A DNA stretch of 64,000 bases from contig JBAZKJ010000002.1 of assembly GCA_041650855.1 (NCBI GenBank), positions 550,044-614,043 on the forward strand. Direction: 5' to 3'. The notes under the pieces were generated by a model. It did no database searches. It saw only the letters and a program-made list of their open reading frames with translations, and had not been told where the DNA came from. The stretch comes from Candidatus Margulisiibacteriota bacterium (GTDB lineage Bacteria; Margulisbacteria; WOR-1; O2-12-FULL-45-9; XYB2-FULL-48-7). Position 1 is the first letter of the stretch. Each line of letters opens with the position of its first letter. Positions 1 through 54,772 of the stretch are shown piece by piece. Made by a program: the position numbers and the translations under genes.

Positions 1-1373
1 GAGGAGGGACCTGGCGTGCCGATCCCGACATTGCCGAACAAATGGGAATTGCCGTTGACGTATAAGGCGCCGTCGCTCCCCCCTTCAAACCTGGCGGCAT
101 ATTTCAGGCTGGTCGGGCCGACAACATGCAGCGGCGAGGTTGGACTCGTCGTCCCGACCGCGACTTTTCCCCGATCGATTATCAGGCTGCCGGTGTCTTT
201 CCCCGGCCGCAGATAGATATCCTCGTTGGCGCCCAGATAAACATATGACGTATTGGTCGTTCCTTTAATCTGTAACTTGCTGGTTGGATTGGTGGTTCCA
301 GTCCCGATACCAATATTGCCGACATCATTGATGACCATCCGCTCTTCAAACACGGACCCGTTGGAAGTAGAAAAAGACAACAAGCTGGGAGCATAAGACA
401 CAGGGGCTCCCGTCGAGATCGCCCTGATGCTGGCGCCGGAACGGCTTAAGCCGTTGCCATACCCCCAAAAGAAGATGCCGCCCAGGACATCGCCGTATTG
501 CACGGCGCTCGGGCTGGTCGGGTAACCGCGATAGCGGCGGAACGACAGATACGGGTAAGAAGCGCTGCTGTACTCGTTCAGGTAACCGCCGCCGATCACG
601 TCAAGCGGAACTTCGGGGTTTAAGGTCCCGATCCCGATCTTGCCGGAAAAGAAATTCTTGGGGCCTTTGGCAAATACTCCGAAGCCGCTGACGCTTTCGA
701 ACGAACCGCCGGCGGCGCCGCCGCCGCCGAATACCCCGATCTTATTGGTGCTGCGCCCGTAAACACCGTAGCCGTTATCGCCTACCCCGGCAACGCCGGC
801 GCCAACCTCCACTCCTTCGCCCAGGATCCCGATATTCCCCATGGCCGCCCCGGTTACCCCATAACCACCGCCGCTGGTCGGTCCAACTACTTGCAATCTG
901 GCTGTTGGATTAGTGTTTGAGCCTATTCCGACATTACCGCCGGAATAATATATGTTGCTGCCGGAGGAAGACCATTGTCCACCTCCGCTCCCGCCCACAA
1001 CGCTGTCCGCCAACGCCGCCCGAAAGGCGTAAGGCACGGTGTTAAGCGCCTGGCGCGGGGAGAGGACGGTCTCGCCGACCTTAATTTCCACCCAGTAAGG
1101 CCGGTCAAATACCAGGGCGGTGCCAGCCGTGTCGATTTCAGTGGAAAATATGCCGCTGGTGGGATCAGGAGTGACCGTAACCGGATGATCGGCCGTGTCA
1201 ACGAGATTTCCGCCGGTCAACGCGTCGTAAAAAGTGAAGGTCAATTGCCGCGGGCCTGATAGCCCGGTTAACTTACCGGTAAAACTGATCTTGTTCGGCA
1301 CCACCCCCCACCCAACACCGCTCGCCGCCACCAGAATACCCAAAACCATAATTAACCCTAATATCTTTTTCAT
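1..1373 (-). CDS. Secreted repeat protein, partial (C-terminus lies beyond window start); Gly-rich with tail-fibre-like N(V/I)GIG(T/S)xxP..KLxVxG repeats
   Basis: Continuous minus-strand frame from ATG at 1373 (MKKILGLIMVLGILVAASG, signal-peptide-like) to the window edge. A GGGGGA Shine-Dalgarno sits about 7 nt upstream. It is absent from the ORF track only because it runs off the window. Repeated motifs NVGIGSNTNPTARLQVVG / NIGIGTGTTNPTSKLQIKG / NVGIGTPGPSS and Gly-rich blocks are visible as DNA repeats around 400-1000. This motif is typical of proteins annotated as tail fibre domain-containing or S74-associated surface proteins. Confidence 0.6.
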   Translation of the reverse strand, partial: MKKILGLIMVLGILVAASGVGWGVVPNKISFTGKLTGLSGPRQLTFTFYDALTGGNLVDTADHPVTVTPDPTSGIFSTEIDTAGTALVFDRPYWVEIKVGETVLSPRQALNTVPYAFRAALADSVVGGSGGGQWSSSGSNIYYSGGNVGIGSNTNPTARLQVVGPTSGGGYGVTGAAMGNIGILGEGVEVGAGVAGVGDNGYGVYGRSTNKIGVFGGGGAAGGSFESVSGFGVFAKGPKNFFSGKIGIGTLNPEVPLDVIGGGYLNEYSSASYPYLSFRRYRGYPTSPSAVQYGDVLGGIFFWGYGNGLSRSGASIRAISTGAPVSYAPSLLSFSTSNGSVFEERMVINDVGNIGIGTGTTNPTSKLQIKGTTNTSYVYLGANEDIYLRPGKDTGSLIIDRGKVAVGTTSPTSPLHVVGPTSLKYAARFEGGSDGALYVNGNSHLFGNVGIGTPGPS

Positions 1374-1404: not shown

Positions 1405-3285
1405 TTAGTAGGAGTCCCAATTCAGCAGATCCTTCTTCAAGACCCACTGCATGTAATCCGTTTGATAGAGCATCTCGACCGTTTCGGCGCGGGAGAGGAG
1501 CTTGTTCGGTTCCAAGTTCTTCCCTTGGAGATAATCGAGGATGTTGACCCGGAAAGCGCCTTCCACCAGGCCGGCCGACCAGTGGGTCGCCGGCAGATCG
1601 GGGAAAATGTTGGAGTAGGTCTCTTCCGAGATCCCGGCGAACCGCGCGATCATCGCCAGTCCTTCCGCCCGGGTAATATTCCCGTTCGGCTTAAAGAGGT
1701 TGCCCGGGTAACCCTTGACGATCCCCTGCTCCGCCGCCTGAGCGATGAATCTGGCCGCCCAATGCTTGACGGGAACGTCCTTAAAGCCGGCATTGGCCGC
1801 CGATTCAAGGCTCGCGCCCCGCGACTTCATTAATAATGTAGCCATTTCCGCCCGGGTAATATTCCCTTCGGGCTTGAAGGTGCCGTTGGGATAACCGGTC
1901 AGTACCCCCTGCATGGCCAACAAGGAGATCTTTTCTCTCGTCCAGTAGCCTTCAGGGACGTCGGGGAACGGCTGGAGCCGGAGGACACGGACCTTTTTCT
2001 GGTCGATCAGCTTGCCGGCCGCGTCTTTCCCTTCCACTACGAGGGCATTTTTGCCGATGGTCAGGTCGATCGGCTGGTTAAAGTTCCCTTTCAGGTCGAA
2101 CTTCGCGAGCCGGCCGCTGACCAGCAGGCTCCGGATGCGCGGGTCCTTGATCGCGCCGGTGACCGCCAACTTCTCGTCGTAGGTCATCAGCTTGTCGGAC
2201 TGGACGGTAAGCCGTTCGCCGGTTTCCTCCACCAATTTGACCGGCGAATAGCTGAGCGAGAAGAACGAATTGGAGACGCCGGGCAGCGTGACAAAAGAGT
2301 GGTAACCGTAATCGAAGCGGAAACCGCCGTATTTGACCCCGACGCCGCCCGCCAGGTTGTTGACCGTTTGGATATTGGCGCCGGTCCCGTCCCCTTCGAT
2401 CGCCTGGTCGATCCCGGCACGGATGGCGATCATCGTGATCGGCGACCATTCCACGCCCAAGTGGTAGAGCGGCAAGGTCTTGGCTACCTGGATCTGGTAA
2501 TCCATGTCGGCCAGCAGCATCACTTCCTGGCCCGTTTTATAAAGCGCATTTTGCTGGCCGAGCAATTTTAGCGCCCCGCCGACCTTCACGTTATGAGGGA
2601 ATCCTTCCTTGTGGCCGCTGGCATAGTTCAGCGTACCGCCCAGAGACCCGGGCAGAACGTTCTGGAAGGCGGCGCCGAGCGTCAAAGCTTTATGCGGCGT
2701 TACCAGCAAACCCAGGTCCAGCTGAGTGCCGGTCGCGTTGCCGTTGCTGATCGAGTCGCCCGACAGTCCGACGTTAAAAAGCTTAAGATTGGCGCCGAGC
2801 GAGACCTTGTCCGCCCAGGCTAACTTGTTGTAAAGGCGCTCCAGGCCGGTCGCGTAAGCGAGCGAATAAACGTAATTGCTGTTGCTGATCTGCGGCTGGG
2901 ACATGTCGATCTCGTAGATCGGATCGTTCGGGTCGGAACCTTCGACCATCTTGGTGGCATAAGCGCCGCCGATCGAATAGCCGCCGAGCCCCAGGGCAAA
3001 ATTACCGTACTGGGTCGGATAAACTCCGGCCAGCGACAGGTAGCTGTAATCCTCCAGGAACTTGCCGGATAAAGTGTCGAGCTGCCAATCCCTGGTCCGG
3101 GCTAACCCGGCCGGATTAATGTAGAGCGCCGAAGCGTCATCCGCCAGGCCGACGAAAGTCCGGCCGAGGCCGATCACCCGGGCGTTGAGGCAGCGATCCG
3201 ACGGGTCGACGGCCTGGAATTGGGCCGCCGCCATCCCCGCGACCAGCGCGCCTACCATTATTATGGCTAATAAGGCCTTTCTCAT
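1405..3285 (-). CDS. Outer-membrane FadL/TodX/PorV-like beta-barrel protein with three C-terminal SLH domains (paralog 1)
   Basis: 626 aa with a signal peptide (…AGMAAAQ). The N-terminal hatch-like motif IGLGRTFVGLADDASALYINPAGLA matches the FadL family G-x-GRA…ADDA…NPA signature. The C-terminal about 190 aa contain three canonical SLH repeats (e.g. FKDVPVKHWAARFIAQAAEQGIVKGYPGNLFKPNGNITRAEGLAMIARF). The start ATG overlaps the upstream gene stop (ATGA). Confidence 0.75.
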   Translation of the reverse strand: MRKALLAIIMVGALVAGMAAAQFQAVDPSDRCLNARVIGLGRTFVGLADDASALYINPAGLARTRDWQLDTLSGKFLEDYSYLSLAGVYPTQYGNFALGLGGYSIGGAYATKMVEGSDPNDPIYEIDMSQPQISNSNYVYSLAYATGLERLYNKLAWADKVSLGANLKLFNVGLSGDSISNGNATGTQLDLGLLVTPHKALTLGAAFQNVLPGSLGGTLNYASGHKEGFPHNVKVGGALKLLGQQNALYKTGQEVMLLADMDYQIQVAKTLPLYHLGVEWSPITMIAIRAGIDQAIEGDGTGANIQTVNNLAGGVGVKYGGFRFDYGYHSFVTLPGVSNSFFSLSYSPVKLVEETGERLTVQSDKLMTYDEKLAVTGAIKDPRIRSLLVSGRLAKFDLKGNFNQPIDLTIGKNALVVEGKDAAGKLIDQKKVRVLRLQPFPDVPEGYWTREKISLLAMQGVLTGYPNGTFKPEGNITRAEMATLLMKSRGASLESAANAGFKDVPVKHWAARFIAQAAEQGIVKGYPGNLFKPNGNITRAEGLAMIARFAGISEETYSNIFPDLPATHWSAGLVEGAFRVNILDYLQGKNLEPNKLLSRAETVEMLYQTDYMQWVLKKDLLNWDSY

Positions 3286-4643
3286 CTGGCGATAACGATC
3301 CTCAGCTTTTTCATTTCGTTGTTTTCCGGAATCCTGATCGCGCCGATCAGCATGCCGAGCTGTTCTTTACCCAGGTCATCGCGGGCCGGCACCTTAATGG
3401 TTATTCGCGCTTGTTCGCCGGCCAGGGGGTGAACGGTCAGCGAGCGGACCTTGCCCGGGCCTGAGCCGGCGGCAAAGACCGTTCCTCCCCCGGTCGGGAC
3501 GGTAAAATCGGTCTTTTGGGAGAAGCTCGGCCCGACCATGACGAACTGGAGGCTGGAAGGCAATTTATTCATGATCGCGTTGACCTTGATCTCGTCTTCC
3601 GGCGTATAAAAGCTGGGCCCGGCCAGGATCAGGCCGATATAATCGGCAAAGCTGTTCTTATCGATCAAGTTAATACTCGTGCTGGCGGTCGTACCGTCCG
3701 GATTGTTGACCGTGATCTGGACCGAACTGCCGGTGGCCGCCTTGCCGATGGTCAGCGTGCCGAGGAAGATGACCCCCCGCTGGGTCGTGCCCGGGATCAG
3801 CGCCTCCGGCGAAACGACGGTTTGGGAGGACTTGACGTTCGGGTCGGAAAAGCTGACGGTGGCGTCCTGGCTGACGCCGGTGACGTAGAGGGCGAAATTG
3901 CTGACCGTGATATCGTTATTCGCGTCCCGCGGGAAACTGGGCATCGGCGGAAAAACGCCGACGACCGCGAAAGCGGGATCGGTGTTGGTGACCGCGAAAT
4001 TATAGGTCGCATAACCGGAATCGGGATTGGTCACGACAAAAGGCGCCACCCCGCCGGAAGCAGCCGAGCTGACGGAAAAACCGACCGTGATCCGGCCGGA
4101 AGTGACCACTTCATAAGAAGTAATGGTGATGCTGGAGCTGAGGTTGGAAACTACCGCCGCCGGATCGAACAAGGCCCCTTCGATCGTGGCAAAAACTGTT
4201 TCCCCGGCGTTCGCGCCGGACGGCGACATGCCGCTGATCGCCGGCGGCGTGACCGCCAGGTTGACGACCATCAGGCCGGCGAACACTTCGTAGCTGGAGC
4301 CGTCATTCTTGATAACGCGGATGTTGCGGGCGACGGCCTCGGCCGTAACGTCGCAGGTCAGGTCAAAAGTTATCTGGCTGTCGGAGACGACGGTCAGCGT
4401 CCCCGGGTCGATCGTCAGGCCCGCGGCCGGGGTGAACTCCACGGTCGTGACATGTTGCAGATCGCGGCCGGTGATCGTGATCCGCTCATGGCTCTCACCG
4501 GTCATAATGGACGATGGGGAGACCGAATCGATGATCTGAAACGGTTTAACCGCAGCAAAAGAGGCAGTGGTCAGTAAGACAACCGCGGAAACCAGCATTA
4601 GAAATAAGCCGGTTTTCTTCATATTCGCAGGCAATAATATCAT
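3282..4643 (-). CDS. Secreted Ig-like/IPT-like repeat surface protein (hypothetical)
   Basis: 453-aa ORF. An alternative start at 4622 (MKKTGLFLMLVSAVVLLTTASFAA) gives a cleaner signal peptide and sits about 5 nt after a predicted TTGACT-16/17-TATTAT promoter. Ser/Thr/Val-rich beta-sandwich-like repeats. The stop overlaps the start of the FadL-SLH gene by 4 nt. Confidence 0.6.
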   Translation of the reverse strand: MILLPANMKKTGLFLMLVSAVVLLTTASFAAVKPFQIIDSVSPSSIMTGESHERITITGRDLQHVTTVEFTPAAGLTIDPGTLTVVSDSQITFDLTCDVTAEAVARNIRVIKNDGSSYEVFAGLMVVNLAVTPPAISGMSPSGANAGETVFATIEGALFDPAAVVSNLSSSITITSYEVVTSGRITVGFSVSSAASGGVAPFVVTNPDSGYATYNFAVTNTDPAFAVVGVFPPMPSFPRDANNDITVSNFALYVTGVSQDATVSFSDPNVKSSQTVVSPEALIPGTTQRGVIFLGTLTIGKAATGSSVQITVNNPDGTTASTSINLIDKNSFADYIGLILAGPSFYTPEDEIKVNAIMNKLPSSLQFVMVGPSFSQKTDFTVPTGGGTVFAAGSGPGKVRSLTVHPLAGEQARITIKVPARDDLGKEQLGMLIGAIRIPENNEMKKLRIVIAR

Positions 4644-4689
4644 TGCACACTATAATAGTCAATGTTACAATTGCCGTCGGAGGGAAAAA
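4623..4689. promoter_or_regulatory. Back-to-back divergent promoter region
   Basis: Plus strand: -10 TATAAT at 4651-4656, then GGAGGG SD before ATG 4690. Minus strand: -35 TTGACT (4656-4661) and -10 TATTAT (4634-4639), ending about 10 nt before the ATG at 4622. The two promoters interdigitate. Confidence 0.35.
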
Positions 4690-5895
4690 ATGAAATATTT
4701 TGTTCCGTTAGCTATCCTCGTCTTGCTGGTCGGCTTAAGCGGCTGCACTTCGAGCGCCCCGCTCGAGCGCGCGACCACGACCACCACGCCCGCTACCACC
4801 TCAACAACGGCCGCAACGACCACCACGGCCGCCGGTACGACCACGACGACCGGCACCGGACCAACGACTACCGGCACGCCTACCACTTCCACAACAACGA
4901 CCACTACCGGCCCGGTCGCGACGTACACGGTCAACGGAACGGCCAATATCATGGGGTACGGGATCGCCGGCGTGCTGGTCACGATCGAAGGCGTTGGCAC
5001 CACGACGACCGATCCAGCCGGGAACTTCTCCTTCGGCTCGGTCCCGGCCGGGTTCTGGAGCATGACATTCTGGCAGGCCGGCTGGACATTCGATCCAGCC
5101 TCTGTTTCTTTCGTTCTGACCGGCAATTTGACGAAAAATAGCTCGGGTGAACCGACCGACTGGACGGCGCAAAAAGTCGGCACCGCTCACCTGACCGCCG
5201 CGACTTCCATCGATGCCGGCATGTTTATTGTCGGAAAGAACAGCTCGGTCATTTTACAATCAACCGATGGCGGCACGAATTGGGTAACTGCCTTTACCAA
5301 TAATCCGACCTCCGAACCGTTGATCGCCTGCTTTAGCATGCCGGGAAATACCCTGGGCATAATCAATCAAGATGGTTCAATCTTCCAAAGCACCGATCCG
5401 ACGGTTACCGCCTGGGCTTATTATTTCCGGGTCATCAATACCACCGAAGCCTTGGTCGATTTTAACGCGGCCAGCAACTTAACTTGGGAAGTCGTAACCG
5501 CCGGCGGCAAGATCCTCTGGAGCGGGGACCAAGGCGCAACTTACCTTGATTCCACGGAAGCCGGCAGCTTTGTCCACGGCATTCAGTTGCAGGACCCTTA
5601 TACGATGGTTGCGGCCGGGAACAACGGTTATGTCAAATATTACGACGGCTCGAGCTGGATCAACTTGGGCCCGGGCGGCTCGGAAAACTTTCATAAAGCG
5701 CTATTTGATACAAATGCCGCCTTGCTGGTCTCCAGTCAAGGCGTTATTTACAAAAGCACGGATAACGGCGTGAATTGGGCCCGCAGTTTAACCGGCTTTC
5801 CGGCGACGTTTGAAGGGGTATTTATCCCGGGGGCGCCGTCATTTACCGGCTCGATCGTCTGCGGCAGCAACGGCTGGGTCCTGAAACACAAATAA
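4690..5895 (+). CDS. Lipoprotein with Thr/Pro-rich linker, carboxypeptidase-regulatory-like domain and BNR/Asp-box beta-propeller-like C-terminal region
   Basis: Start MKYFVPLAILVLLVGLSGC (lipobox LSGC) is preceded by GGAGGG SD. The ORF-track start at 4567 lies upstream of the SD and is unlikely. About 50-aa Thr-rich tract (TTTTTPATTSTTAATTTT…). Asp-box-like motifs STDGGTNW and STDNGVNW. Confidence 0.6.
   Translation: MKYFVPLAILVLLVGLSGCTSSAPLERATTTTTPATTSTTAATTTTAAGTTTTTGTGPTTTGTPTTSTTTTTTGPVATYTVNGTANIMGYGIAGVLVTIEGVGTTTTDPAGNFSFGSVPAGFWSMTFWQAGWTFDPASVSFVLTGNLTKNSSGEPTDWTAQKVGTAHLTAATSIDAGMFIVGKNSSVILQSTDGGTNWVTAFTNNPTSEPLIACFSMPGNTLGIINQDGSIFQSTDPTVTAWAYYFRVINTTEALVDFNAASNLTWEVVTAGGKILWSGDQGATYLDSTEAGSFVHGIQLQDPYTMVAAGNNGYVKYYDGSSWINLGPGGSENFHKALFDTNAALLVSSQGVIYKSTDNGVNWARSLTGFPATFEGVFIPGAPSFTGSIVCGSNGWVLKHK
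4768..4923 (+). repeat. Low-complexity Thr/Pro/Gly-rich linker-coding tract (ACC/ACG codon repeats)
   Basis: DNA is runs of accacg/accacc. Protein is TTTTTPATTSTTAATTTTAAGTTTTTGTGPTTTGTPTTSTTTTTTG. Confidence 0.6.
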
Positions 5896-5898
5896 GGA

Positions 5899-7020
5899 CT
5901 AGAACAGCCTCTGCCCCTGCGGCTTGACGCGGACGCCGAACATATAGTTGCGGCTCCCGGCGTTAAGCAGGTCGTCCCCCTGCAGCAGCAGGTCCATGTA
6001 ATCCTGCATTTCGTGTTCGTACCCCAGCCTGACTTTCGGATTGTTCGGCCGCGGGTTGTTGATATCGTATATATCGGCCAGAATGTTACCCTTGGCGTTC
6101 GGATACAGGACCAACCCGCCGCCCAGCTGGCTGTTGATCACGCCGAGCCGGAAACCAAAACGATCGTTCGATTTATTGGTCAGCAAAAAGTCGAGCAGCG
6201 CCGGCGTCCGGCTCGGACCTTCGCCGAAACCGAGCCGGTAATAGGTCTGGTCGCTCTGGATAATATCAACGTCGCCGCGGACCGCGTTCGCGGTGGAGCC
6301 GACATCAACGCCGCCCGAAGCACGCATGTTGACCCGGCCGATGTTGGCGAAAAAGGCGTTGGCGGAAGAGAGGGTCCGCTCGGTCTCGTGGATCGTCCCC
6401 TTGACGTTCGCCTGGAACTTGGGATCGGCGACGATATCCTGGATCCCCTTGTTGGTCGCCCGCAGTTCCTTGGTCAGCTCTTCCAGCTGGATCGCGGTCC
6501 GGTCGGCCACTACCACCGCGTTGACGAACGAATGCTGCAGCGCCGGGTTCTCGATGATCTTGCGGACGGCTTGCAGAATAGCCCTGGTCTCTTCCAGGTT
6601 CTTGGAACCGATATCGACGAAATCGACGATCGCCGAAGTGCGGGTCCCGGGCAAAATCTCCCCTTTAACGTACATCACCTCGGAGGTCCCCGGCTTGATC
6701 TCCAGATATTTCACGCCGACGATCCCGTCGTAAGAGACCCGCAGGACCGAATCGGCCGGGATCTTGATGCTTTTATCCACGACCGAGAAGATCTTAATGT
6801 CGTACGGGCCCGGATCGATCTTCATCACCTTGCCGATCTTGGAGCCGCGGAAGCGGACCTCGGAGCCGATGGTCAACCCTTCGATGTTCTCGAACGAAGC
6901 GATCACTTCGTACCCCTGGCCGATCATGAAGATCTCGGTCTTCCAGGCGACAACGGCGGCCAGCAGACTGAGACCGAGGATGGTGACAAGCCCGACCTTG
7001 GCCGCGGTGGATAAACCCAT
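5899..7020 (-). CDS. mlaD: MCE/MlaD-family protein (long form with C-terminal extension)
   Basis: N-terminal TM anchor MGLSTAAKVGLVTILGLSLLAAVVAW followed by an MCE domain. GGAGGGG SD lies 9 nt upstream of ATG 7020. The ORF-track start at 7095 would overlap mlaF by 71 nt. About 373 aa versus about 180 aa for E. coli MlaD. Confidence 0.7.
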   Translation of the reverse strand: MGLSTAAKVGLVTILGLSLLAAVVAWKTEIFMIGQGYEVIASFENIEGLTIGSEVRFRGSKIGKVMKIDPGPYDIKIFSVVDKSIKIPADSVLRVSYDGIVGVKYLEIKPGTSEVMYVKGEILPGTRTSAIVDFVDIGSKNLEETRAILQAVRKIIENPALQHSFVNAVVVADRTAIQLEELTKELRATNKGIQDIVADPKFQANVKGTIHETERTLSSANAFFANIGRVNMRASGGVDVGSTANAVRGDVDIIQSDQTYYRLGFGEGPSRTPALLDFLLTNKSNDRFGFRLGVINSQLGGGLVLYPNAKGNILADIYDINNPRPNNPKVRLGYEHEMQDYMDLLLQGDDLLNAGSRNYMFGVRVKPQGQRLF

Positions 7021-7024
7021 ATTA

Positions 7025-7750
7025 TTAGACCCCTCCAGTAATAAAACGTTTGACGATCGGCTCGTTCGACCTGGCCGCCTCGGCGGGCGAACCAAGCTCG
7101 ATGAATTTACCTTCGTTCATCATGACGACCCGGTTGGCGACCCGCTGCACCGTTTGCATCACGTGCGTGACCAGCACCGAGGTAACCTTCAGCTCACGGG
7201 CCAATTTTACCATCAAATTCTCGATCGTAACAGAGGTGATGGGGTCCAACCCGGTGGTCGGCTCGTCGTAGAGGATGATCGTCGGGTTAAAAGCGAGCGC
7301 CCGGGCGATGCCGACCCTTTTTTGCATCCCGCCGGACAGCTCTTCCGGCATCAGCTTTTCCGTCCCCTCCATTTCGACCAGCCGCAGTTTTTCCTTGACG
7401 ACCCTGGCGATCTCCCGCTCGGGCAATTTGGCGTGTTCGCGCAGGGCGAACGCCACGTTCTCGTAGACCGAGAGCGAATCGAAGAGCGCCCCGTACTGGA
7501 AGATCATGCCGACCTTTTGCCGCAGGCCGATCAGTCCCTCCTCGTCGAGCTTGGCGATATCCCGGCCGTTGACGGTAACGCTGCCGCCGGTCGGTTCTTC
7601 CAGCCTGATCAGCAGTTTGAGCAGGGTGCTCTTGCCGCAGCCGGACGGGCCGATCACCGCCAGCGCCTGGCCGTCGGGGATCTCCAGGTCGACCCCGTCG
7701 AGCACCTTATGGTCGCAAAAACTTTTACTTAATTTGTTTAGCTTGATCAT
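7025..7750 (-). CDS. mlaF: ABC transporter ATP-binding protein, MlaF-like
   Basis: Walker A GPSGCGKST, ABC signature LSGGMQKR. ATGA overlap with the upstream permease gene. Confidence 0.8.
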   Translation of the reverse strand: MIKLNKLSKSFCDHKVLDGVDLEIPDGQALAVIGPSGCGKSTLLKLLIRLEEPTGGSVTVNGRDIAKLDEEGLIGLRQKVGMIFQYGALFDSLSVYENVAFALREHAKLPEREIARVVKEKLRLVEMEGTEKLMPEELSGGMQKRVGIARALAFNPTIILYDEPTTGLDPITSVTIENLMVKLARELKVTSVLVTHVMQTVQRVANRVVMMNEGKFIELGSPAEAARSNEPIVKRFITGGV

Positions 7751-8526
7751 TTAAAGAACGCCATGGAAAGGAAATAGTTGAGCACGAACAGGCTGATCAG
7801 CGAAGTGACGACCGACGAAGTGGTCGCTTCCCCCACTCCCTTGGCGCCGCCGGCGGCGTTCAACCCCTTGTAACAGGCGACGACGGCGATCACCATGCCG
7901 AAGAAAAAGGTCTTGGTCAGCCCGCCAAAAATATCCCAAAGCGTGAGGAGCGAACGGGCAGTTTCCAGGTACTCCACCGGATTGATGTGGCCGACCAGAA
8001 CAGCGACAAAATAACCGCCGACAAAACCGGTGACGATCGCGCCGACCGTCAGGAGAGGCAGCATCAGGGCGCTGGCGATAAAGCGCGGGATGACGAGGTA
8101 GCGGACCGGGTTGCTGCCGAGCGCCTTGAGCGCGTCGATCTGCTCGGTCACTTGCATGGTGCCGAGCTCGGCGGCAATGGCCGCGGAAACCCGCGCCGCA
8201 ATGACGATGCCGACCAGCGCCGGTCCCAGCTCGCGCGCCATGGCGATCGCCATGACCCCGCCGACGAACTTGCCGGCGCCGAAGCGGACGAACTCGGTGG
8301 CGATCTGCATGGCAAAGACCATGCCGACAAAACCGGAAGCGACCAGCGCCAGCGGGACCGACTCGTAGCCGATCTTGACCATTTGCTCCAGCGTCAGCTT
8401 AAGTCGGGTTTTCCCGGCCAGGATCCCCCGGATCGTCTCTTGGGCAAGCATCACGACCCGGCCCAGCCCCTCAAAAAGGAGGATCGTTTTATCCCCGACG
8501 TTTTCAGCGACTCTTTTGTAGACCAT
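7747..8526 (-). CDS. mlaE: ABC transporter permease, MlaE-like
   Basis: 259-aa polytopic membrane protein with typical MlaE/YrbE family sequence. Operon position is upstream of mlaF and mlaD. Confidence 0.8.
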   Translation of the reverse strand: MVYKRVAENVGDKTILLFEGLGRVVMLAQETIRGILAGKTRLKLTLEQMVKIGYESVPLALVASGFVGMVFAMQIATEFVRFGAGKFVGGVMAIAMARELGPALVGIVIAARVSAAIAAELGTMQVTEQIDALKALGSNPVRYLVIPRFIASALMLPLLTVGAIVTGFVGGYFVAVLVGHINPVEYLETARSLLTLWDIFGGLTKTFFFGMVIAVVACYKGLNAAGGAKGVGEATTSSVVTSLISLFVLNYFLSMAFFK

Positions 8527-9301
8527 GGTGGATGTTAGCTATGATATCAGAAGCGGTAAGCGATTGCTCCCCGCAGAGCCTGGCGGCCTGGTCGCCGGCT
8601 AAACCGTGCCAATAAACGCCGGTCACGGCTGCGTCCCAGGCGGAAAAGCCCTGCCCGGCCAGACTGGCGATCATCCCGGTCAGGACATCGCCGGCGCCGG
8701 CGGTCGCCATCCCCGGATTACCGTTTTTATTGATCGCGAACTTCCCGGCCGGCTCGGCGATAACGGTCCGATTACCCTTGAGGACAACGACCGCGCCGAA
8801 CTTCACCGCCGCCTGCAGGGCGATGCCTTGGCGGTTCGCTTGAACGGCCTCGACCGTCAGACCAAGCAATTTGGCCATCTCGCCCGGATGCGGCGTAATA
8901 ACAGCCTGGCTGGCGAACGGCTTGAGCAAATCCGGGCTCTTGGTTAACGCTGGCAAAGCGGTCGCGTCAATTATTAATTTAGAATTTAAAGTCAATAATT
9001 GATGAATTAATTTATTAATATCTTGCTGTGGATCGATGCCGGGGCCAATCGCGACCGAATCCGGCTGGACCTTAGCCAACTCATTAAGGGAAACAACAAT
9101 GACTTCGGGCGTAATGGTGTTGGCAAAGTTGACAAGGTCGTCGGGTACGGCCCAGTAAACAAGCCCGGAACCGGTCCGCAAAGCGGCGCGCGCCGCTAGA
9201 ACGCCGGCGCCGAGCATCCCGCGCGAACCGGCAACGACCAGGACCTTGCCGTAATCGCCTTTATGGCTATCCGGTTTTCGTTTGGGGAGACGCTTTACCA
9301 T
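8504..9301 (-). CDS. nnrD: ADP-dependent NAD(P)H-hydrate dehydratase (YjeF C-terminal domain only)
   Basis: HKGDYGKVLVVAGSRGMLGAGVLAARAALRTGSGLV N-terminal signature of the YjeF_C carbohydrate-kinase fold. 265 aa, stand-alone. Confidence 0.75.
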   Translation of the reverse strand: MVKRLPKRKPDSHKGDYGKVLVVAGSRGMLGAGVLAARAALRTGSGLVYWAVPDDLVNFANTITPEVIVVSLNELAKVQPDSVAIGPGIDPQQDINKLIHQLLTLNSKLIIDATALPALTKSPDLLKPFASQAVITPHPGEMAKLLGLTVEAVQANRQGIALQAAVKFGAVVVLKGNRTVIAEPAGKFAINKNGNPGMATAGAGDVLTGMIASLAGQGFSAWDAAVTGVYWHGLAGDQAARLCGEQSLTASDIIANIHHGLQKSR

Positions 9302-11139
9302 GTGTTAAGGGTGCGGATCTGGGCGGCCATTTGCGAGGTCCTGGCCAGGACCTCGGCCACCTCGGCGCGGGTCATCGCGCGGTTCGGTTCAAAATTCTTA
9401 CCGCTGAGGAAGGTCAGCCAGCCCGCCTCTTTGGCCGCGGCGATCTCGTTATAAGCCCAGGAGCGGCCGTTAATGTCGCTGAACGGCAGGACGGAAAGCC
9501 GCGGTTTGGTCAAACGGTCGAACCGGGCCAGGATCGAGAGCCCTTCGGCCCTGGTCACTTTACTGTTCGGCCGGAAAGTGCTGTCCGGATAGCCTTTGAC
9601 CAGGTTCTCTTTGACCGCTTCGATAATGTGTTGCGCTGCCCAGTGGGTCGCCGGTACGTCCATGAACCCTTGCTGCCAGCCCGGCTTGATCTCGATCCCC
9701 TTGATCCGCATCAGCAGGGCGCAAAGCTCAGCCCGGGTAACGCCCGCTTCGGGCAAAAAAGTGCCGTTCGGGTATCCGGCAATGATGCCGAGCGTCGCCA
9801 GGTTCTCGATCGGCGCCTGCGCCCAGTAATCGGGTGTCACGTCGGTAAAACTCTTGAGGCTTAACAACCGGACCTGGTCGGAACCGAGCGGTGCCCATTT
9901 ATCGCTATACGCCGTGATCTCGATCGTGTTTTTGCCGGGTTTAAGGGGAAGCGCAACGTCGACCTGCTGCTGTTTGAGCGGCGCTTCGAAGCCGCTGATG
10001 GTCAGATGGGCGACCTCGCTCTTTAAGACTTTCCCCTGGAAATCGACCCGCTGGCCGCGGATGACCGTTTTATCGGCCGGCTGCAGGGCGAACAGCGCCC
10101 CTTTGGGCGTCCGGTCCTTCTTGCCGACGCCGTAAGAGATGGAAAAATAATGGGTATCATTGTCGCCCGTTTGGCTGTATTGGTGGAACGCGTAATCGAA
10201 ACGGAAATCGTTGAAGTAAAGGCCCAGGCCGAAGGTCAGGTTATTGGAGGCCTCCAGCGCGCCGGAGGTGCCGGTCCCCACCGTTTCCTGGTCGATGCCG
10301 GCGCGCAGGTCGAGCAGGTCGATCGGCGACCACTCGATCCCGGTGTGATAAAGCGCCGGGATATTCGGCCTGGTCGGCGTGAAATCTCCGTCAAAATTTA
10401 AGCGGACCTCGTGTTTGCCGCGGACCCAGATCCCCTGTTCGCCGAGCAGGTTGACGTTGGCCCCCAGTTTGACGACATGAGGCAAACTCTCTTCCAGTCC
10501 GCTCTTCCAGGTGATCTTGCCCCCCATACCGGCCGGCAGGATGTTCTGCAGGACGAGGCCGAACTTGGTAAATTGCAGCGGCCGGTAGTTGATCCCCAGG
10601 TCAAGATCGTTGCCGGCGGCGCTCCCGTTCGTGATCCCCTGCCCGGTCATGTCGACGCCGAAGAACTTGAGCGTGCCGCCGACCGGCAGTTCGTAAAAGG
10701 TCGCGCCCCAGGAAAGGAGGAACACCCGGTTGTTGTATTCGTAATTCGAACCGGCGCCGCCGGTCGGGATGATCCGGATGCCGTCCACCGCCTCGATCGT
10801 CGCGGCGACCGCGGTAAAGCCGACATTACTGCCGACGTAACCGAAGCCGAACGTGCCGTATTTGGTCGGCACGGCTGTCCCCAGGTTAAGATAATTATAT
10901 TCATTAAGGAATTTGCCCGACATGCTGGTCGCCTGCGGCCGGTTGATCTGGGCAAGCGCGGCCGGATTGGTAAAGATCCCTTCCAGGTCGTCGGCCATGC
11001 CGATGTAGCTTTTGCCCATGCCGAGGATCCGGGCGCCGACCCCGATCCGGGTCGGGTCGTTGGCGACTTTGGTCAAGCCGAACGCCAGCGAAGCGACCGT
11101 GACCAGCAGGAGTAAAGAAACCGGCAGTTTTTTAATCAT
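9295..11139 (-). CDS. Outer-membrane FadL/TodX/PorV-like beta-barrel protein with three C-terminal SLH domains (paralog 2)
   Basis: 614 aa with a signal peptide. Hatch motif ILGMGKSYIGMADDLEGIFTNPAALA. Three C-terminal SLH repeats (FTDVTPDYWAQAPI…, FMDVPATHWAAQHI…TRAEGLSILARF, FSDINGRSWAYNEI…TRAEVAEVLART). The start ATG overlaps the stop of the giant upstream gene by 8 nt. Confidence 0.75.
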   Translation of the reverse strand: MIKKLPVSLLLLVTVASLAFGLTKVANDPTRIGVGARILGMGKSYIGMADDLEGIFTNPAALAQINRPQATSMSGKFLNEYNYLNLGTAVPTKYGTFGFGYVGSNVGFTAVAATIEAVDGIRIIPTGGAGSNYEYNNRVFLLSWGATFYELPVGGTLKFFGVDMTGQGITNGSAAGNDLDLGINYRPLQFTKFGLVLQNILPAGMGGKITWKSGLEESLPHVVKLGANVNLLGEQGIWVRGKHEVRLNFDGDFTPTRPNIPALYHTGIEWSPIDLLDLRAGIDQETVGTGTSGALEASNNLTFGLGLYFNDFRFDYAFHQYSQTGDNDTHYFSISYGVGKKDRTPKGALFALQPADKTVIRGQRVDFQGKVLKSEVAHLTISGFEAPLKQQQVDVALPLKPGKNTIEITAYSDKWAPLGSDQVRLLSLKSFTDVTPDYWAQAPIENLATLGIIAGYPNGTFLPEAGVTRAELCALLMRIKGIEIKPGWQQGFMDVPATHWAAQHIIEAVKENLVKGYPDSTFRPNSKVTRAEGLSILARFDRLTKPRLSVLPFSDINGRSWAYNEIAAAKEAGWLTFLSGKNFEPNRAMTRAEVAEVLARTSQMAAQIRTLNTW

Positions 11140-14100
11140 ATATAACGATATGCCCCTTACCGATCACCTTGCCGCCGGCCATGATCCGGAAAACGTAGAT
11201 CCCGTTCCCCAGCGCCAGGCCGGAAGTATCGGAAAGACCGTTGAACGCGATGGCGTTATAGCCGGCCATCCCGCCGTTGGTCCCGGTCGCGTACCGCCGG
11301 TTCCAGACCGGTTCGCCGGCCGGGCCAAAGATGACGAGATTGACGTCGGCGTCCTGGTTCAGGTTATACGCGACCGTCGTGGTCACGTCGCGGGCGATCG
11401 AGTAAGTTGTCGGGTAGACCGAAACCGCGCCGACCAGGGCCGTAGAACTGCCCGCGGCGACCACTTTCAGGCCGGTTACGAGCTTGTTCAGCGAACCGCC
11501 CTCTATGTCGTTCGCCTCCACGCTGATGCTGTGGGCCATGACCGTTTCGTCCTCCAGTTCCCCCGCCGGCTGGAAGATCAGAGTGTAATCCCGGTCGGAG
11601 TTGGCAACGATATAAGGATTGACCAGCGCGCCGTCGAGGTGCATCTTCAGCGAACTCGCTTCGAGCGAAACGTCGTCGGTAATATTGGCTTTGAACGTCG
11701 GCCGTTTCATAACGTAATCGCCGTTCCGGAGATCGGCGTTATTGGCCTTGAGCGAAGCGGCCAGCTTGCCGGCGACGGTGGTGAAGGTCGAACTGAACGC
11801 CGTCAAGCTGTTGCCGATCAGGTCGACGGCGCCCGGGCCGATCGTCACGGTATAATTGCCGCTCCGCGCCAGGATCGCCGCCGGCGTAAAGGTCATCGTC
11901 TGGCCGTCGCTGCTCCAGCTGAAAGCGCCCGCCGCCGTGGCGACCGCCGTCAGGGTAAAAGCGTTCTGGGCCGCCTCCCGGCTCATCTCTTTGGAGAAGG
12001 TGACGATCACTTCGGCGGTAGTCGGGACATTGGTCGCACTACCGGCCGGGACGATCGCCGTCACCGTCGGCCGTACAACGTCGATCGTAAAATCAGCGGC
12101 GCTGATCGCCGTCGCTTCCCGGGTGACCTGGTCGACCGCGCTGACCCTGATCCGGCCGCTGGTCGTGGCCAGGGACGGCACGGTCCACTCGTAGGTCCCG
12201 GTATTGGTCAGGCCGGATGCTACCGTCGACCAGCTGCCCCCGCCGTCACTGGAGAATTGGATAGTGATCGGCGCGGCTGCCAGGCCGACCGTGTCGGACG
12301 CGCTCCACCTGATCGGATAGGTCGCCCCCACCCGCTCGCCGCCGTTGGGCGCGATCACCTCAGCGGTCGGTGGACGGGCGTCAAGCAGGAAGGCGCCGCT
12401 TTCGCCGGTGCCAAGCTGGCCGTAACCATCGAGACCGGTAACTTTAATCCTCATGTTCGCCGATTCAAAGGTCGGAACGGTATTGATATAATACGGTTCA
12501 TTCGTCGGTACGCTGGTATCGATCAGGATGTAATCCGTCCCGCCGTTAAGCGAGTAATAGATCGAGGCGCTGTTCGCCTGGACGCCGTTCGGCCCTCCCA
12601 TCGCAAAGACGATGGGGGTGGCGGGAATGTTTTCGGTCTTGTATTTTCCACCGGCAACGGGATTGGTTACCGTAACGGTTGGCCCCTCCTGGGTCGGCGT
12701 AGTCGCACTAGCCACGCCGGACTCGGAGCTGGCGTCGATCTTCCAGGCCCGGACAAAACGGTTATAAGTACTGCTGCCGGTCATCCCCGCTTCGACCGTC
12801 GAGGCGACGCCGTGCGGCGCTTCGGCCACCACCGCGCCGGTCTCGGCGCTGACCACCTGGTAAACGGATTCCCAGGTCGTGTTGCCGGTCCAGCTCCAGC
12901 GGACCGTGTTGGCCGATTCGGCGGTGCCGACCAGGCCGGTCGGCGCTGCGGGCGTGACCGTTCCCCAACCGATAAAATCGTCGTAAACTATGTAATCGGA
13001 GACTTTTTGCCCCTGCCCGACCGGATTAAAATAACGGCCGCTCGCCCGGTTATCTTCCGGATCGTACGGCCCGGTCGGTTCGCCCCAATCGGTCCGGTTA
13101 AAATAATGCATTGTGCCGCTGTTGTTATTATAGATCGCGTATTTAGTCTCCCGGTCGCCATAGATCGACGCGTTCGCTTCAATGGTGCCGTCCGTCATAA
13201 CGACAGGGCCGGCACCGGTGATCAGCAGGCCGTAACCGCCGTTGTTAACTATCGTATTATTGGCGCCCGAAATGGGACCGCTGGTCGTATGCTGGATCGC
13301 GTCGCCGGTGCAATTGGCGATCTCATTGCCGCTGATGTAGGTCGTATAAAAAGGCTGAGAGACCATGATGCCGTTGCTGTTGCCGAGCGCGCCGCCGGCC
13401 GCGGTCACCCCGAACCGGTTATTATTGATCTGCGTATTATCGATGTTGTAACCGACGACCAGGCCGAAACCGGTATTGCCGGAGATCAGGTTGTTCAAGA
13501 CCTGATTGCCGCTATTGGACGCGCCACCCGCGTTATAGCAGGACATCAAGATGCCGCCCACGGAATTCGGCAGCGCGCCTGATCCGTTCTTGTTCAGGCC
13601 GATATAATTTCCCTGGATCGTGTTAGAGTTCAGCGCCGTGGTATAGCTGTAGGAATCGTAGCCCAGCACGACGCCGTAGCCGCCGTTGCCGGAGATGATG
13701 TTCCGCTCGCCTTCGGCCGTGCCGCCGATCGTATTGAAATTGGCGGTCGTCGGAAAGATCATCACACCGCCGTAGTTACCGACACCATAGGAATTATTGG
13801 GGATCATCCCGTAACCGGAAGCGTTGGTCCCGATGTGGTTCCCTTTGACCGAAAGATAGTCACCGTGCAGCTCCACGCCGGAATTAAAATTGCCGGAGAT
13901 CACGTTCCCCTCGCCCGTCGCGCCGCCGCCGATATCGTTGTACATTCCGCCCAGATAAACACCGTACATGTTCGGCAAAGCGCTGTTGGAGGTCTTGTCC
14001 ACGCCGACATAATTGCCCAGGATCCGGTTATACGCGGTGCCGGACGCGGGATAACTCGGGCTGCTAACGTTTATGCCGTAATTCTGGCCGGCGATCACGT

Positions 14101-16003
14101 TGCGCGCTTCCAGCGTGGCGCCGCCGATCAGTTGGTAGCTCGAATCGGCAAGATAGACACCGTAGTCCGTATAATATGAACCGGAATACCCGGGCAGGAT
14201 GCTGGTCCCGTCGGCGTCGGTCCCGATCAGGTTCCCTTGGACCGTGTTGCCGATAAGCGAATAATTGAGATAAACATTGATATTGTTACAGCTGATCAAG
14301 TTCCCGGCGCCCTCCTGCGTTCCGCCGATCATACAGCCGTAGGAATTATAGGCGTATATGCCGATCATATTTTGCAGGCGGCCGGTCCCGGCCTGGTTCG
14401 TGCCGATCCGGTTCCCCCGGATCTCCGCGCTCGACGTGTTCATGACCTGGATCGCGTAATAGGCATTGCCGGAGATCACGTTCCCCTCGCCGCTGCCGCT
14501 CCCGCCGATCCGGTTGTAAGGCGCTTCCAGCTTGATGCCGTTATAATTACTAAGATAATCCGTGCCGGTCTTGTCTGTGCCGATATAATTACCGATCAGC
14601 CTGTTGTTCTGTGACGTGCCGGAAGCGCATATGCCGAAATAATTTGAGCCGGAGCCGTTGCCGGAGATGATGTTCCGCTCGCCTTCGGTCGTGCCGCCGA
14701 TCGTGTTGTAACTGGAATTGTTGACGTAAACCCCATGATAATTGTTGGGGATGGGGCTGTCTCCCAGACAATTGGTGCCGATATAGTTCCCCTTGACCTC
14801 GTTGCTGGTTCCGCCGTATAAATAAAGGCCGTACCGGGTGTTGCCGGAGATCAGGTTACCCTCGCCGGCATTTCCGCCGCCGATCTGGTTGTAAGGCCCT
14901 TCCACCCTGATCCCGTTATAGTTGGCCAGAGCGTATGTCCCGTTCTTGGTGGTGCCGATGTAATTGCCAAAGACGCGGTTGTGTTGAGCGGTTCCCATGA
15001 TCCAGAGGCCGTAATAATTCGAGGTGCCGTTACCCGATATGACGTTCCGCTCCCCTTCGGCGCTCCCGCCGATCAGGTTCAGGTTCGCATTAGTAATATA
15101 TACCCCGGCGTAGTAATTGGCGATAGCCGTGATCCCGTCGGCGTCGGTCCCGATGTAGTTCCCCTTGACCTCGTTGCTGAGCGCGGTCGTGCCCATGATC
15201 TGGACGCCGACGTTATTGCCGGAGATCAGGTTCCGTTCGGCTTCCGTCGCCCCGCCGATAATGTTGCTGAAGCAATTCACGCCGTCGCCGTAGAGGTTGA
15301 CAGCCGCACCGACAGCGCTTGCTACGGCGCGGCTGCCGGTCCGGTTAACGCCGAGATAATTCCCCTTGATCAGGTTGCCGATACTCCCGGTACATTGAAT
15401 CCCGCAGCTGTTATTGCCGGAGATCAGGTTCCTGGCTTCCGTGGCGTAGCCGCCGACCAGGTTGTAGTTGCCGTGGAGCCAGATGCCGGCGATCGCGGTC
15501 GTGGTGTCAACCTCGCCGGTCGCGTCGGTGCCGAAATAACAGCCGCGGATCGTGTTGTAATCGGTGCCGCAGTCGATCGTGTAGCCGCCTTTGTAGTAAC
15601 TAAAGACCATCCCTTCGATCGTATTACCGTTAGAATAGAGCGCGATCCCGGGGCTGCCTTCGCTGACCTCCGAGGAAATAACGATCTCCGGCCCGTAAGG
15701 ATTGGTATTGCCCTGGTTAATGGTCTGGGTGGAGCCGTTAATATAGATGTTAGGGTTGCTGACCACCAACGAGGTCATTAATTTAATGATCCAGGCGTGA
15801 CCGCCGGGGATCGCTTCGTAACTAAGGTCGGTGGCCGGGATATTGAACTCGATGATCCGGCCGGAAGTGGAAGAGGTTATCCCCTCGCGCAGGGACCCGG
15901 CCCCGGAATCGTTACAATTGGTTACGGTATAAGTATCGGCCGGCGAACTTGAGGTAAAAAACAGGACAAGCGCCAACGCACCCAGGAGCAATCTCGCTCT
16001 CAT
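11132..16003 (-). CDS. Giant secreted right-handed parallel beta-helix repeat surface protein with Ig-like domains and a FlgD-Ig / T9SS-CTD-like C-terminal domain
   Basis: 1623 aa with a signal peptide (MRARLLLGALALVLFFTSSSPA). About 15 tandem ~63-aa repeats of GNYIGT…IGG..EGERN(I/L)ISGN. Ig-like middle region. The last about 90 aa (…VWNRRYATGTNGGMAGYNAIAFNGLSDTSGLALGNGIYVFRIMAGGKVIGKGHIVIYD) match the FlgD-Ig / por-secretion-tail-like pattern. Confidence 0.8.
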   Translation of the reverse strand: MRARLLLGALALVLFFTSSSPADTYTVTNCNDSGAGSLREGITSSTSGRIIEFNIPATDLSYEAIPGGHAWIIKLMTSLVVSNPNIYINGSTQTINQGNTNPYGPEIVISSEVSEGSPGIALYSNGNTIEGMVFSYYKGGYTIDCGTDYNTIRGCYFGTDATGEVDTTTAIAGIWLHGNYNLVGGYATEARNLISGNNSCGIQCTGSIGNLIKGNYLGVNRTGSRAVASAVGAAVNLYGDGVNCFSNIIGGATEAERNLISGNNVGVQIMGTTALSNEVKGNYIGTDADGITAIANYYAGVYITNANLNLIGGSAEGERNVISGNGTSNYYGLWIMGTAQHNRVFGNYIGTTKNGTYALANYNGIRVEGPYNQIGGGNAGEGNLISGNTRYGLYLYGGTSNEVKGNYIGTNCLGDSPIPNNYHGVYVNNSSYNTIGGTTEGERNIISGNGSGSNYFGICASGTSQNNRLIGNYIGTDKTGTDYLSNYNGIKLEAPYNRIGGSGSGEGNVISGNAYYAIQVMNTSSAEIRGNRIGTNQAGTGRLQNMIGIYAYNSYGCMIGGTQEGAGNLISCNNINVYLNYSLIGNTVQGNLIGTDADGTSILPGYSGSYYTDYGVYLADSSYQLIGGATLEARNVIAGQNYGINVSSPSYPASGTAYNRILGNYVGVDKTSNSALPNMYGVYLGGMYNDIGGGATGEGNVISGNFNSGVELHGDYLSVKGNHIGTNASGYGMIPNNSYGVGNYGGVMIFPTTANFNTIGGTAEGERNIISGNGGYGVVLGYDSYSYTTALNSNTIQGNYIGLNKNGSGALPNSVGGILMSCYNAGGASNSGNQVLNNLISGNTGFGLVVGYNIDNTQINNNRFGVTAAGGALGNSNGIMVSQPFYTTYISGNEIANCTGDAIQHTTSGPISGANNTIVNNGGYGLLITGAGPVVMTDGTIEANASIYGDRETKYAIYNNNSGTMHYFNRTDWGEPTGPYDPEDNRASGRYFNPVGQGQKVSDYIVYDDFIGWGTVTPAAPTGLVGTAESANTVRWSWTGNTTWESVYQVVSAETGAVVAEAPHGVASTVEAGMTGSSTYNRFVRAWKIDASSESGVASATTPTQEGPTVTVTNPVAGGKYKTENIPATPIVFAMGGPNGVQANSASIYYSLNGGTDYILIDTSVPTNEPYYINTVPTFESANMRIKVTGLDGYGQLGTGESGAFLLDARPPTAEVIAPNGGERVGATYPIRWSASDTVGLAAAPITIQFSSDGGGSWSTVASGLTNTGTYEWTVPSLATTSGRIRVSAVDQVTREATAISAADFTIDVVRPTVTAIVPAGSATNVPTTAEVIVTFSKEMSREAAQNAFTLTAVATAAGAFSWSSDGQTMTFTPAAILARSGNYTVTIGPGAVDLIGNSLTAFSSTFTTVAGKLAASLKANNADLRNGDYVMKRPTFKANITDDVSLEASSLKMHLDGALVNPYIVANSDRDYTLIFQPAGELEDETVMAHSISVEANDIEGGSLNKLVTGLKVVAAGSSTALVGAVSVYPTTYSIARDVTTTVAYNLNQDADVNLVIFGPAGEPVWNRRYATGTNGGMAGYNAIAFNGLSDTSGLALGNGIYVFRIMAGGKVIGKGHIVIYD
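13200..15700 (-). repeat. Tandem intragenic DNA repeats (about 190 bp unit, about 380 bp super-unit) encoding beta-helix coils
   Basis: Near-identical blocks recur, e.g. gccggagatcacgttcccctcgcc…ccgccgatc at about 13895, 14465 and 14840, and gccggagatgatgttccgctcgccttcgg at about 13690, 14660 and 15030. Confidence 0.6.
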
Positions 16004-54765: not shown

Positions 54766-54772
54766 GGGTTTA

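Follow-up and report, generated by a model that had tools for sequence, protein, structure and literature searches.

Attachment of the outer membrane in Terrabacteria has so far been explained almost wholly by OmpM, which, like Mep45, the Slr1841-type porins and Deinococcus SlpA, joins a barrel covalently to S-layer homology (SLH) sequence in diderm members of that group and is a probable tether. A chain of OmpM has a single N-terminal SLH domain, then a stalk of coiled coil and a porin barrel of 16 strands, and three SLH domains come together in the trimer (PMC10628300). Trimeric autotransporters of the Negativicutes, for example Veillonella VtaG, have SLH directly after the barrel, in the periplasm, and link an adhesin to peptidoglycan (bioRxiv 10.64898/2026.01.22.700529), and in Bacteroidota dedicated barrels encoded beside their cargo anchor that cargo on the cell surface, joined by a peptidoglycan-binding protein as in the PorE-PorP-PG1035 complex (PMC9143113, PMC12618676). 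Here we analyze a 64-kb stretch of DNA, hereafter the window, from a Candidatus Margulisiibacteriota metagenome-assembled genome (MAG). The gene of interest, at 1405..3285 on the minus strand, is an open reading frame (ORF) of 626 amino acids for an outer-membrane protein consisting, in order, of a signal peptide, a plugged barrel, an immunoglobulin (Ig)-like spacer and a triple SLH module. A paralog of 614 amino acids with the same architecture lies at 9295..11139, also on the minus strand, and is 35% identical to the target over its full length. Patterns of fold, architecture and gene order make it somewhat probable that these proteins are wall-pinned outer-membrane docks, each for a cognate surface protein, that also tether the membrane.

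The target is identical (100%) to NCBI protein P0001, of 617 amino acids, from a Candidatus Margulisiibacteriota MAG (708-kb contig), annotated by NCBI as just "S-layer homology domain-containing protein"; the start of P0001 is probably Met10 of the 626-residue ORF. Domain limits were taken from sequence and profile matches and from an AlphaFold 2 (AF2) model built on a 44-sequence family alignment, with a mean predicted local distance difference test (pLDDT) score of 89.3. All coordinates of the target are on the minus strand. The signal peptide was read from the sequence as residues 1-21 (3223..3285), MRKALLAIIMVGALVAGMAAA with a putative cleavage site before the following Q, and AF2 gives an N-terminal helix at residues 2-16. 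The N-terminal plug, or hatch, follows at residues 22-66 (3088..3222) as short helices and coil before strand 1 and bears the motif GLADD...NPAGLA. The beta-barrel occupies residues 67-347 (2245..3087), the Ig-like spacer residues 355-437 (1975..2223) and the triple SLH module residues 440-626 (1408..1968).

By sequence profile and predicted fold the barrel falls among the 14-strand barrels of the FadL superfamily, where it is PorV/PorQ-like and not a transporter of the FadL/TodX kind. Residues 34-346 match the NCBIfam PorV/PorQ model NF033709 end to end (positions 12-324 of 326; E 3e-20, 72.9 bits). The best Foldseek match of the AF2 model in the PDB is PorV, chain 8gl6_F (E 9e-13, template modelling (TM) score 0.65 on the target), from 8GL6, a type IX secretion system (T9SS) complex that includes PorV and is bound to a substrate C-terminal domain (CTD); TodX, TbuX, FadL and CymD are listed after it (E 1e-8 to 1e-6, with TodX, TbuX and FadL at 7e-9 to 3e-6). 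When the whole PDB was searched with a sequence profile of the barrel, PorV alone was matched (E 5e-4 with 6H3I_F, whose sequence is that of the PorV chain in 8GL6), and CymD appeared at E 0.62 over the hatch region only. The family profile was required to reach PorV, a phmmer search of PDB sequences with the barrel alone having returned only noise. There was no Pfam Toluene_X/FadL match for the target at E<=0.1, and no PorP/SprF model stood among the NCBIfam matches of the target (E<=0.1) or the paralog (E<=0.01), so that neither is placed in the PorP/SprF family.

Fourteen long strands were found between residues 68 and 346 by our own count on the DSSP string of the AF2 model, a count that omits short strand pairs within two long loops. 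The target thus has the 14-strand barrel and the N-terminal hatch with NPA motif that characterize FadL and TodX, and none of the plug residues G41, D50, N57 and P58 varies across 44 homologs, A59 being nearly invariant. FadL and TodX share this plugged fold and motif with the target but are without its periplasmic extension or any Pfam-level match to it. In even-stranded barrels with a FadL/PorV-type plug the C-terminus emerges in the periplasm. Because the strand number here is even and the plug is of this type, the C-terminus, and hence the SLH triad, is predicted to be periplasmic; an extracellular location of the SLH module is rejected on the even strand number together with the PorV/FadL-like topology.

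The C-terminal module is recognized as SLH, Pfam PF00395 scoring 105.5 bits in the target, against a cutoff of 20.8, and 131.5 bits over the three repeats of the paralog. Three helical repeats were modelled between residues 440 and 626, and the triad superposes on the SLH domains of Bacillus anthracis Sap (3PYW; TM 0.85, root-mean-square deviation 2.3 A) and also matches by Foldseek the SLH domains of P. alvei SpaA bound to pyruvylated N-acetylmannosamine (TM about 0.8). The TRAE-type Arg/Glu pairs are invariant across the 44 homologs in all three repeats (R478/E480, R539/E541 and R599/E601). By analogy, the ligand is most likely a pyruvylated secondary cell-wall polymer, like that of other Terrabacteria outside the Firmicutes, because of this structural likeness to SpaA and Sap and because co-occurrence of CsaB with SLH has been reported for diderm Terrabacteria. 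Between barrel and SLH the Ig-like domain matches Glucodextran_B (PF09136) at residues 363-429 (33.2 bits, cutoff 27), and AF2 places a beta-sandwich at residues 359-436 after a short linker. In one relative, P0214, the barrel is followed by LysM (23 bits, cutoff 20.9) in place of SLH, and such an exchange of one wall-binding module for another speaks for wall binding by the C-terminal end. Taken from sequence and model, which give a membrane barrel, a rigid spacer in the periplasm and an SLH triad whose ligand-binding residues are intact, a role in tethering the outer membrane to peptidoglycan is plausible.

Several of these features had been proposed in an initial annotation of the same stretch. 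Its reading of both paralogs as barrels with a FadL-type N-terminal hatch, an even strand number and a C-terminal SLH triad turned toward the peptidoglycan is borne out by the SLH scores, the invariant plug residues and the fourteen strands. The further suggestion, of a tether built on a FadL transporter scaffold, stands as far as the FadL superfamily and the plausibility of tethering are concerned and gives way where the scaffold itself is concerned, since NF033709, Foldseek and the PDB profile search all indicate a PorV/PorQ-like barrel. Similarly, its statement that known SLH tethers carry the module at the N-terminus is correct for OmpM (PMC10628300) but not for the trimeric autotransporters of the Negativicutes, in which SLH follows the barrel. 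Neither the Ig-like domain between barrel and SLH nor the pairing with upstream genes for CTD-bearing surface proteins, described below, had been noticed.

The fusion of barrel and SLH is not peculiar to this genome. A search with the barrel alone found 1,966 cluster representatives at E<1e-3, 170 of them at E<1e-30, and 217 relatives were retrieved and classified with local hidden Markov models (HMMs) built from the family alignment. SLH follows the barrel in 150 of the 217 and precedes it in none: 108 have the order barrel-Ig-SLH3, 23 have barrel-SLH3 and 19 vary from these in that SLH or Ig-SLH modules are duplicated or added, the remaining 67, several of which are fragments, being without SLH. 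The Ig-like spacer was found in about 120 of the 217. A gene-fusion or assembly artefact is ruled out by conservation of the fusion in >100 clusters at 50% identity. When each GTDB species was scanned through a single genome, 55 loci were found, and all those with informative titles were from Margulisiibacteriota, Saganbacteria or WOR-1, an answer to the question of distribution raised in the initial annotation that holds for close relatives only and says nothing on absence in other phyla, since the scan used a narrow alignment (A3). Several paralogs occur per genome, with up to four loci in some genomes, and 61 of 68 barrel genes (the genome loci with those of the window) carry the SLH triad. 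The family thus appears conserved, rich in paralogs and lineage-specific, combining an SLH tether with a PorV-type cargo-binding barrel.

Some members depart from this pattern. In a few the whole periplasmic module is doubled to barrel-Ig-SLH3-Ig-SLH3, giving proteins of about 955 amino acids, and other members have up to four SLH-triad matches (members of these two kinds are found at locus L039, 3902..6781, and in P0082 and P0206). One relative, P0047, is 45% identical to the target barrel and lies in a MAG labelled Acidobacteriia (locus L005; GCA_020072565.1, JAIQGI010000012.1, a 141-kb contig), where its upstream partner carries a CTD. This may be a binning error, or the family may extend beyond Margulisiibacteriota and Saganbacteria.

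The second pattern concerns gene order. In the window and in the loci of relatives, barrel-SLH genes sit just downstream of a gene for a secreted surface protein, the stop and start codons often overlapping. The paralog follows a secreted protein of 1,623 amino acids with beta-helix and Big_5 sequence (11132..16003, minus strand), with which its start overlaps by 8 nucleotides, and residues 1524-1623 of this partner (11135..11434, minus strand) form a beta-sandwich CTD resembling FlgD_ig and the T9SS type A sorting domain, found by HMMs (E 4e-32 with the local CTD HMM, the only match to that HMM in the window). Orthologs of this partner, of at least about 1290 amino acids and ending at the locus edge, lie upstream of the same barrel subclade in loci L034, L037, L039, L045 and L050. 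Among relatives, 50 non-barrel genes were counted immediately upstream on the same strand. A conserved CTD of about 100 residues was found in 28 of these with an iterated local HMM, and 12 more were BNR-propeller proteins whose CTD is homologous by profile-profile comparison (probability 95.8%, E 7e-9), for a total of about 40 of the 50. Of 44 members of the CTD family, 21 match FlgD_ig, 12 match the T9SS type A sorting domain TIGR04183 at E<0.01 (best E 4e-8), 11 match the C-terminal domain region of PorU and seven that of PorZ, and the CTD profile finds FlgD as its best match in the PDB (E 2e-7). Searched against a large protein database, a profile of the CTD alignment gave only seven short matches.

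Clustering of the barrel domains showed that barrel subclades co-cluster with the class of partner. The subclade of the paralog adjoins giant beta-helix proteins with "GNGIYVFKI...GKG..VVY" tails, a second subclade adjoins proteins with "GQTYFVV" tails, another adjoins BNR-propeller proteins, and that of the target adjoins the family of its own 453-residue partner. One subgroup of barrel-SLH or partner genes is positioned directly downstream of flhA, where a flagellar export operon (fliP, fliQ, fliR, flhB, flhA) ends, as seen in L001 (1..769), L003 (2324..4408), L012 (1801..3885) and L038 (1778..3865), and the partner CTD in this subgroup is of the FlgD_ig type; the adjacency to flhA may be coincidental.

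These patterns are consistent with a dock fixed to the wall. The barrel-SLH protein would be exported by Sec to the outer membrane, where its plugged, monomer-type 14-strand barrel would insert, the chain after the last strand re-entering the periplasm as an Ig-like spacer and a single-chain SLH triad. The triad would bind a peptidoglycan-associated polymer, and wall and outer membrane would thereby be stapled together. Each paralog in the window is apparently co-transcribed and translationally coupled with the large secreted surface protein encoded just upstream, and that protein, once it had presumably crossed the outer membrane, would most likely be held on the cell by the barrel, which would serve as its immobile dock. 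A cargo-docking role in addition to tethering is suggested by the conserved pairing with genes for CTD-bearing surface proteins upstream. Docking is proposed because the barrel and the CTDs of its neighbours resemble PorV and the T9SS CTD, which are known to interact, because the genes are coupled and co-diversifying, and because there are precedents in Bacteroidota, the models being PorV-PorU, PorQ-PorZ and PorP/SprF with its type B cargo. PorE binds peptidoglycan through OmpA_C, and in the proposed arrangement the SLH module would take the part of this wall-binding portion of PorE within the PorE-PorP-PG1035 complex. A more specific version, in which the lineage has its own display system of immobile PorV-like-SLH docks, each serving one surface protein recognized through its T9SS-type-A/FlgD_ig-like CTD, is possible and is put forward tentatively.

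There are several observations that weigh against docking and should be set beside it. Neither barrel reaches the curated cutoff of NF033709 (90 bits, compared with 72.9 for the target and 66.3 for the paralog), and the CTD of the 1,623-residue partner is likewise under its family cutoffs, with TIGR04183 at E 0.004 and 17.1 bits (cutoff 23) and FlgD_ig at E 0.0035 and 17.7 bits (cutoff 27). The matches of the CTD profile to PorU (E 0.056) and PorZ (E 0.11) in the PDB are marginal. The 453-residue partner of the target has no TIGR04183 or FlgD_ig match, and when the C-terminus of its family was compared with the CTD profiles by hhalign the probabilities were 0.5% (A4) and 15% (A6), neither significant; its AF2 model, built on a four-sequence alignment, has a mean pLDDT of 54.5 with residues 323-446 below 50, making the C-terminus of that model unusable. 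Housekeeping genes, flhA among them, make up about 10 of the 50 genes counted upstream. The idea that the extracellular loops of the barrel are its variable, partner-specific parts found mixed support, for the predicted loops L2 and L4 are conserved and not paralog-specific, and L5, L6, T2 and T4 are variable. No SprA/Sov-like translocon or PorU-like sortase was found in the window. On the wall side, no csaB or PS_pyruv_trans match, for which the initial annotation had suggested looking, was found among the scanned proteins of the window.

An alternative explanation could be that the family is purely a structural tether and that its adjacency to surface-protein genes reflects a general cell-envelope neighbourhood. 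The domain architecture and conserved SLH residues would be accounted for, as would the exchange of SLH for LysM at the same position, and envelope genes do lie nearby, including Mla, Lpt-like and mur genes. This explanation is also favoured by the partner of the target itself, in which a CTD is not detectable, and by those paralogs that follow housekeeping genes. It would not account for the large number of paralogs, with subclades that follow the kind of gene lying upstream, or for the overlap of stop and start codons, neither of which a tether alone would need; moreover, canonical OmpM tethers have already been reported in the lineage, and the nearest relative of the barrel is one that binds cargo. 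For these reasons we regard a tether without cargo as unlikely, although it deserves more weight than either of the two explanations that follow.

Alternatively, the barrel could be a FadL/TodX-type channel anchored to the wall, importing hydrophobic compounds by lateral diffusion, with the SLH module merely positioning it. The N-terminal hatch with its invariant NP(A) motif and the Foldseek matches to TodX, TbuX, FadL and CymD would fit such a channel, but profiles find PorV and not FadL, the Pfam Toluene_X/FadL family is not matched, there are no fatty-acid or aromatic catabolic genes adjacent in the window, and multiple paralogs are paired with surface proteins, so that an import function is improbable. 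That the protein is a bona fide T9SS component, a mobile PorV shuttle between an SprA/Sov translocon and the PorU sortase complex, is less probable still, for although the barrel is PorV-like and neighbours have T9SS-type-A-like CTDs, a triple SLH anchor should immobilize the barrel and leave it ill-suited to shuttling, no T9SS core gene was found in the window or in about 60 inspected loci, both barrel and CTD fall under curated family cutoffs, and published descriptions confine the system to Bacteroidota and the FCB group.

Returning to the wall-pinned dock, comparison with described systems shows where it would be new. Compared with OmpM the target has barrel and SLH in the opposite order, a plugged PorV-like barrel of 14 strands, an Ig spacer and three SLH repeats within a single chain, so that it does not belong to the OmpM type, although it may still act as a tether in the same way; in having its SLH triad in a single chain it is like the S-layer proteins of monoderms. 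Barrels of the FadL/PorV type are monomeric. The VtaG-type autotransporters have a 12-strand barrel made from three chains, one SLH per chain and a passenger that is part of the same polypeptide, whereas the target has a single-chain 14-strand barrel and three SLH, and its presumed passenger is a separate protein. The domain order is that of E. coli OmpA, in which the barrel comes first and a periplasmic peptidoglycan-binding domain last, although OmpA has an 8-strand barrel and OmpA_C. Because canonical OmpM homologs have been reported in Margulisbacteria and Saganbacteria (bioRxiv 10.1101/2021.05.31.446380), the family would be an additional tether and not a replacement.

PorV is the closest barrel both by structure and by sequence profile, and the CTDs of neighbouring genes are of the kind that PorV binds. 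The target differs from PorV in adding the periplasmic Ig and SLH3 modules and in coming from a different phylum in which no T9SS core genes accompany it in the window and inspected loci; furthermore, there are many paralogs each with its own neighbour and not one general shuttle, and because of the SLH anchor the barrel would be fixed rather than mobile. The PorE-PorP-PG1035 and SprF-SprB systems share its organization, as there too a dedicated barrel is encoded beside a cognate CTD-bearing surface protein, which it anchors, and a peptidoglycan-binding part is involved. The differences from PorP/SprF are that the target barrel is PorV/PorQ-like, that the CTD is type-A/FlgD_ig-like and not type B, and that the wall-binding part, there a separate OmpA_C protein, is here an SLH extension of the barrel chain.

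There are two key implications. First is that the family adds to OmpM a second, architecturally independent solution to joining SLH and barrel, one in which the domains are ordered as in OmpA, the barrel is of a monomer type and one chain holds the whole SLH triad, in sister lineages of the Cyanobacteria. Secondly, the barrel and the CTDs of its neighbours represent the two halves of a PorV-CTD recognition pair in a phylum not known for T9SS, which brings together two areas of research so far separate. If the pairing is physical, it would provide a testable model for the display of very large surface proteins and the transfer of load to the wall in uncultured diderm Terrabacteria and would bear on the evolutionary origin of T9SS cargo recognition. 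Should a display system of this kind be confirmed, recognition of the CTD-PorV type would occur outside Bacteroidota and independently of the canonical T9SS, and the wall would be linked across the outer membrane, by one polypeptide, to a surface protein that is possibly an S-layer protein or adhesin. In the full-text literature we found no paper joining PorV with "S-layer homology" and none on a fusion of SLH with a FadL-type barrel.

At the locus of the target, the upstream partner is a secreted protein of 453 amino acids (446 if started from Met8 at 4622) at 3282..4643 on the minus strand, with Ig-like 'choice-of-anchor Z' repeats, and its stop codon is overlapped by the ATG of the target (ATGA). 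Only four homologs of this partner were found; in L061 and L062 it again lies upstream of the orthologous barrel gene, and the 4-nucleotide overlap is kept. A promoter-like site lies just 5' of the partner gene at 4634..4662 on the minus strand (TTGACT, 17 nucleotides, TG-TATTAT) and is a 10/12 consensus match only. On the other side, 32 nucleotides past the target stop, begins the third gene of the putative operon (1..1373, minus strand), which was read from sequence as a secreted fibre-like protein of at least 457 amino acids with GNVGIGT repeats and exits the window. In L062 and L063 homologs of 790-939 amino acids come directly downstream of barrel-SLH genes, as does a more distant one (855 amino acids) in L004, and both of those in L063 carry Pfam Peptidase_S74, a tail-fibre chaperone domain. 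Partner, barrel-SLH protein and fibre-like protein may thus form a conserved module of three genes.

The divergent neighbour of this module, at 4690..5895 on the plus strand, is a putative lipoprotein (lipobox LSGC) with a CarboxypepD_reg-like domain, a BNR/Ycf48-like propeller, a Thr/Pro-rich linker and a weak BamI_Bacteroidota match. A similar divergent gene is kept in L061, and it is possibly associated with the barrel-SLH module, any role being speculative; its set of domains recalls that of the T9SS protein PorE minus OmpA_C. Between the two barrel-SLH modules lies an MlaD/MlaE/MlaF-like operon (5899..8526, minus strand; MlaD of 398 amino acids), and synteny is kept in L061 and L062 in the order paralog, Carb_kinase, MlaE, MlaF, MlaD, BNR protein, partner and target.

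Elsewhere in the window, all on the minus strand, there is a glycogen gene cluster rich in GH57 that includes an 820-residue fusion of sugar-nucleotidyl transferase and phosphoglucomutase (42558..45020) and a 322-residue DUF4912 protein (46606..47574) with a Glucodextran_B Ig-like domain, as in the barrel-SLH spacer. Finally, a 607-residue ThyX-like protein (53358..55181) has two Thy1 matches and so looks like a flavin-dependent thymidylate synthase that has been duplicated in tandem or fused.

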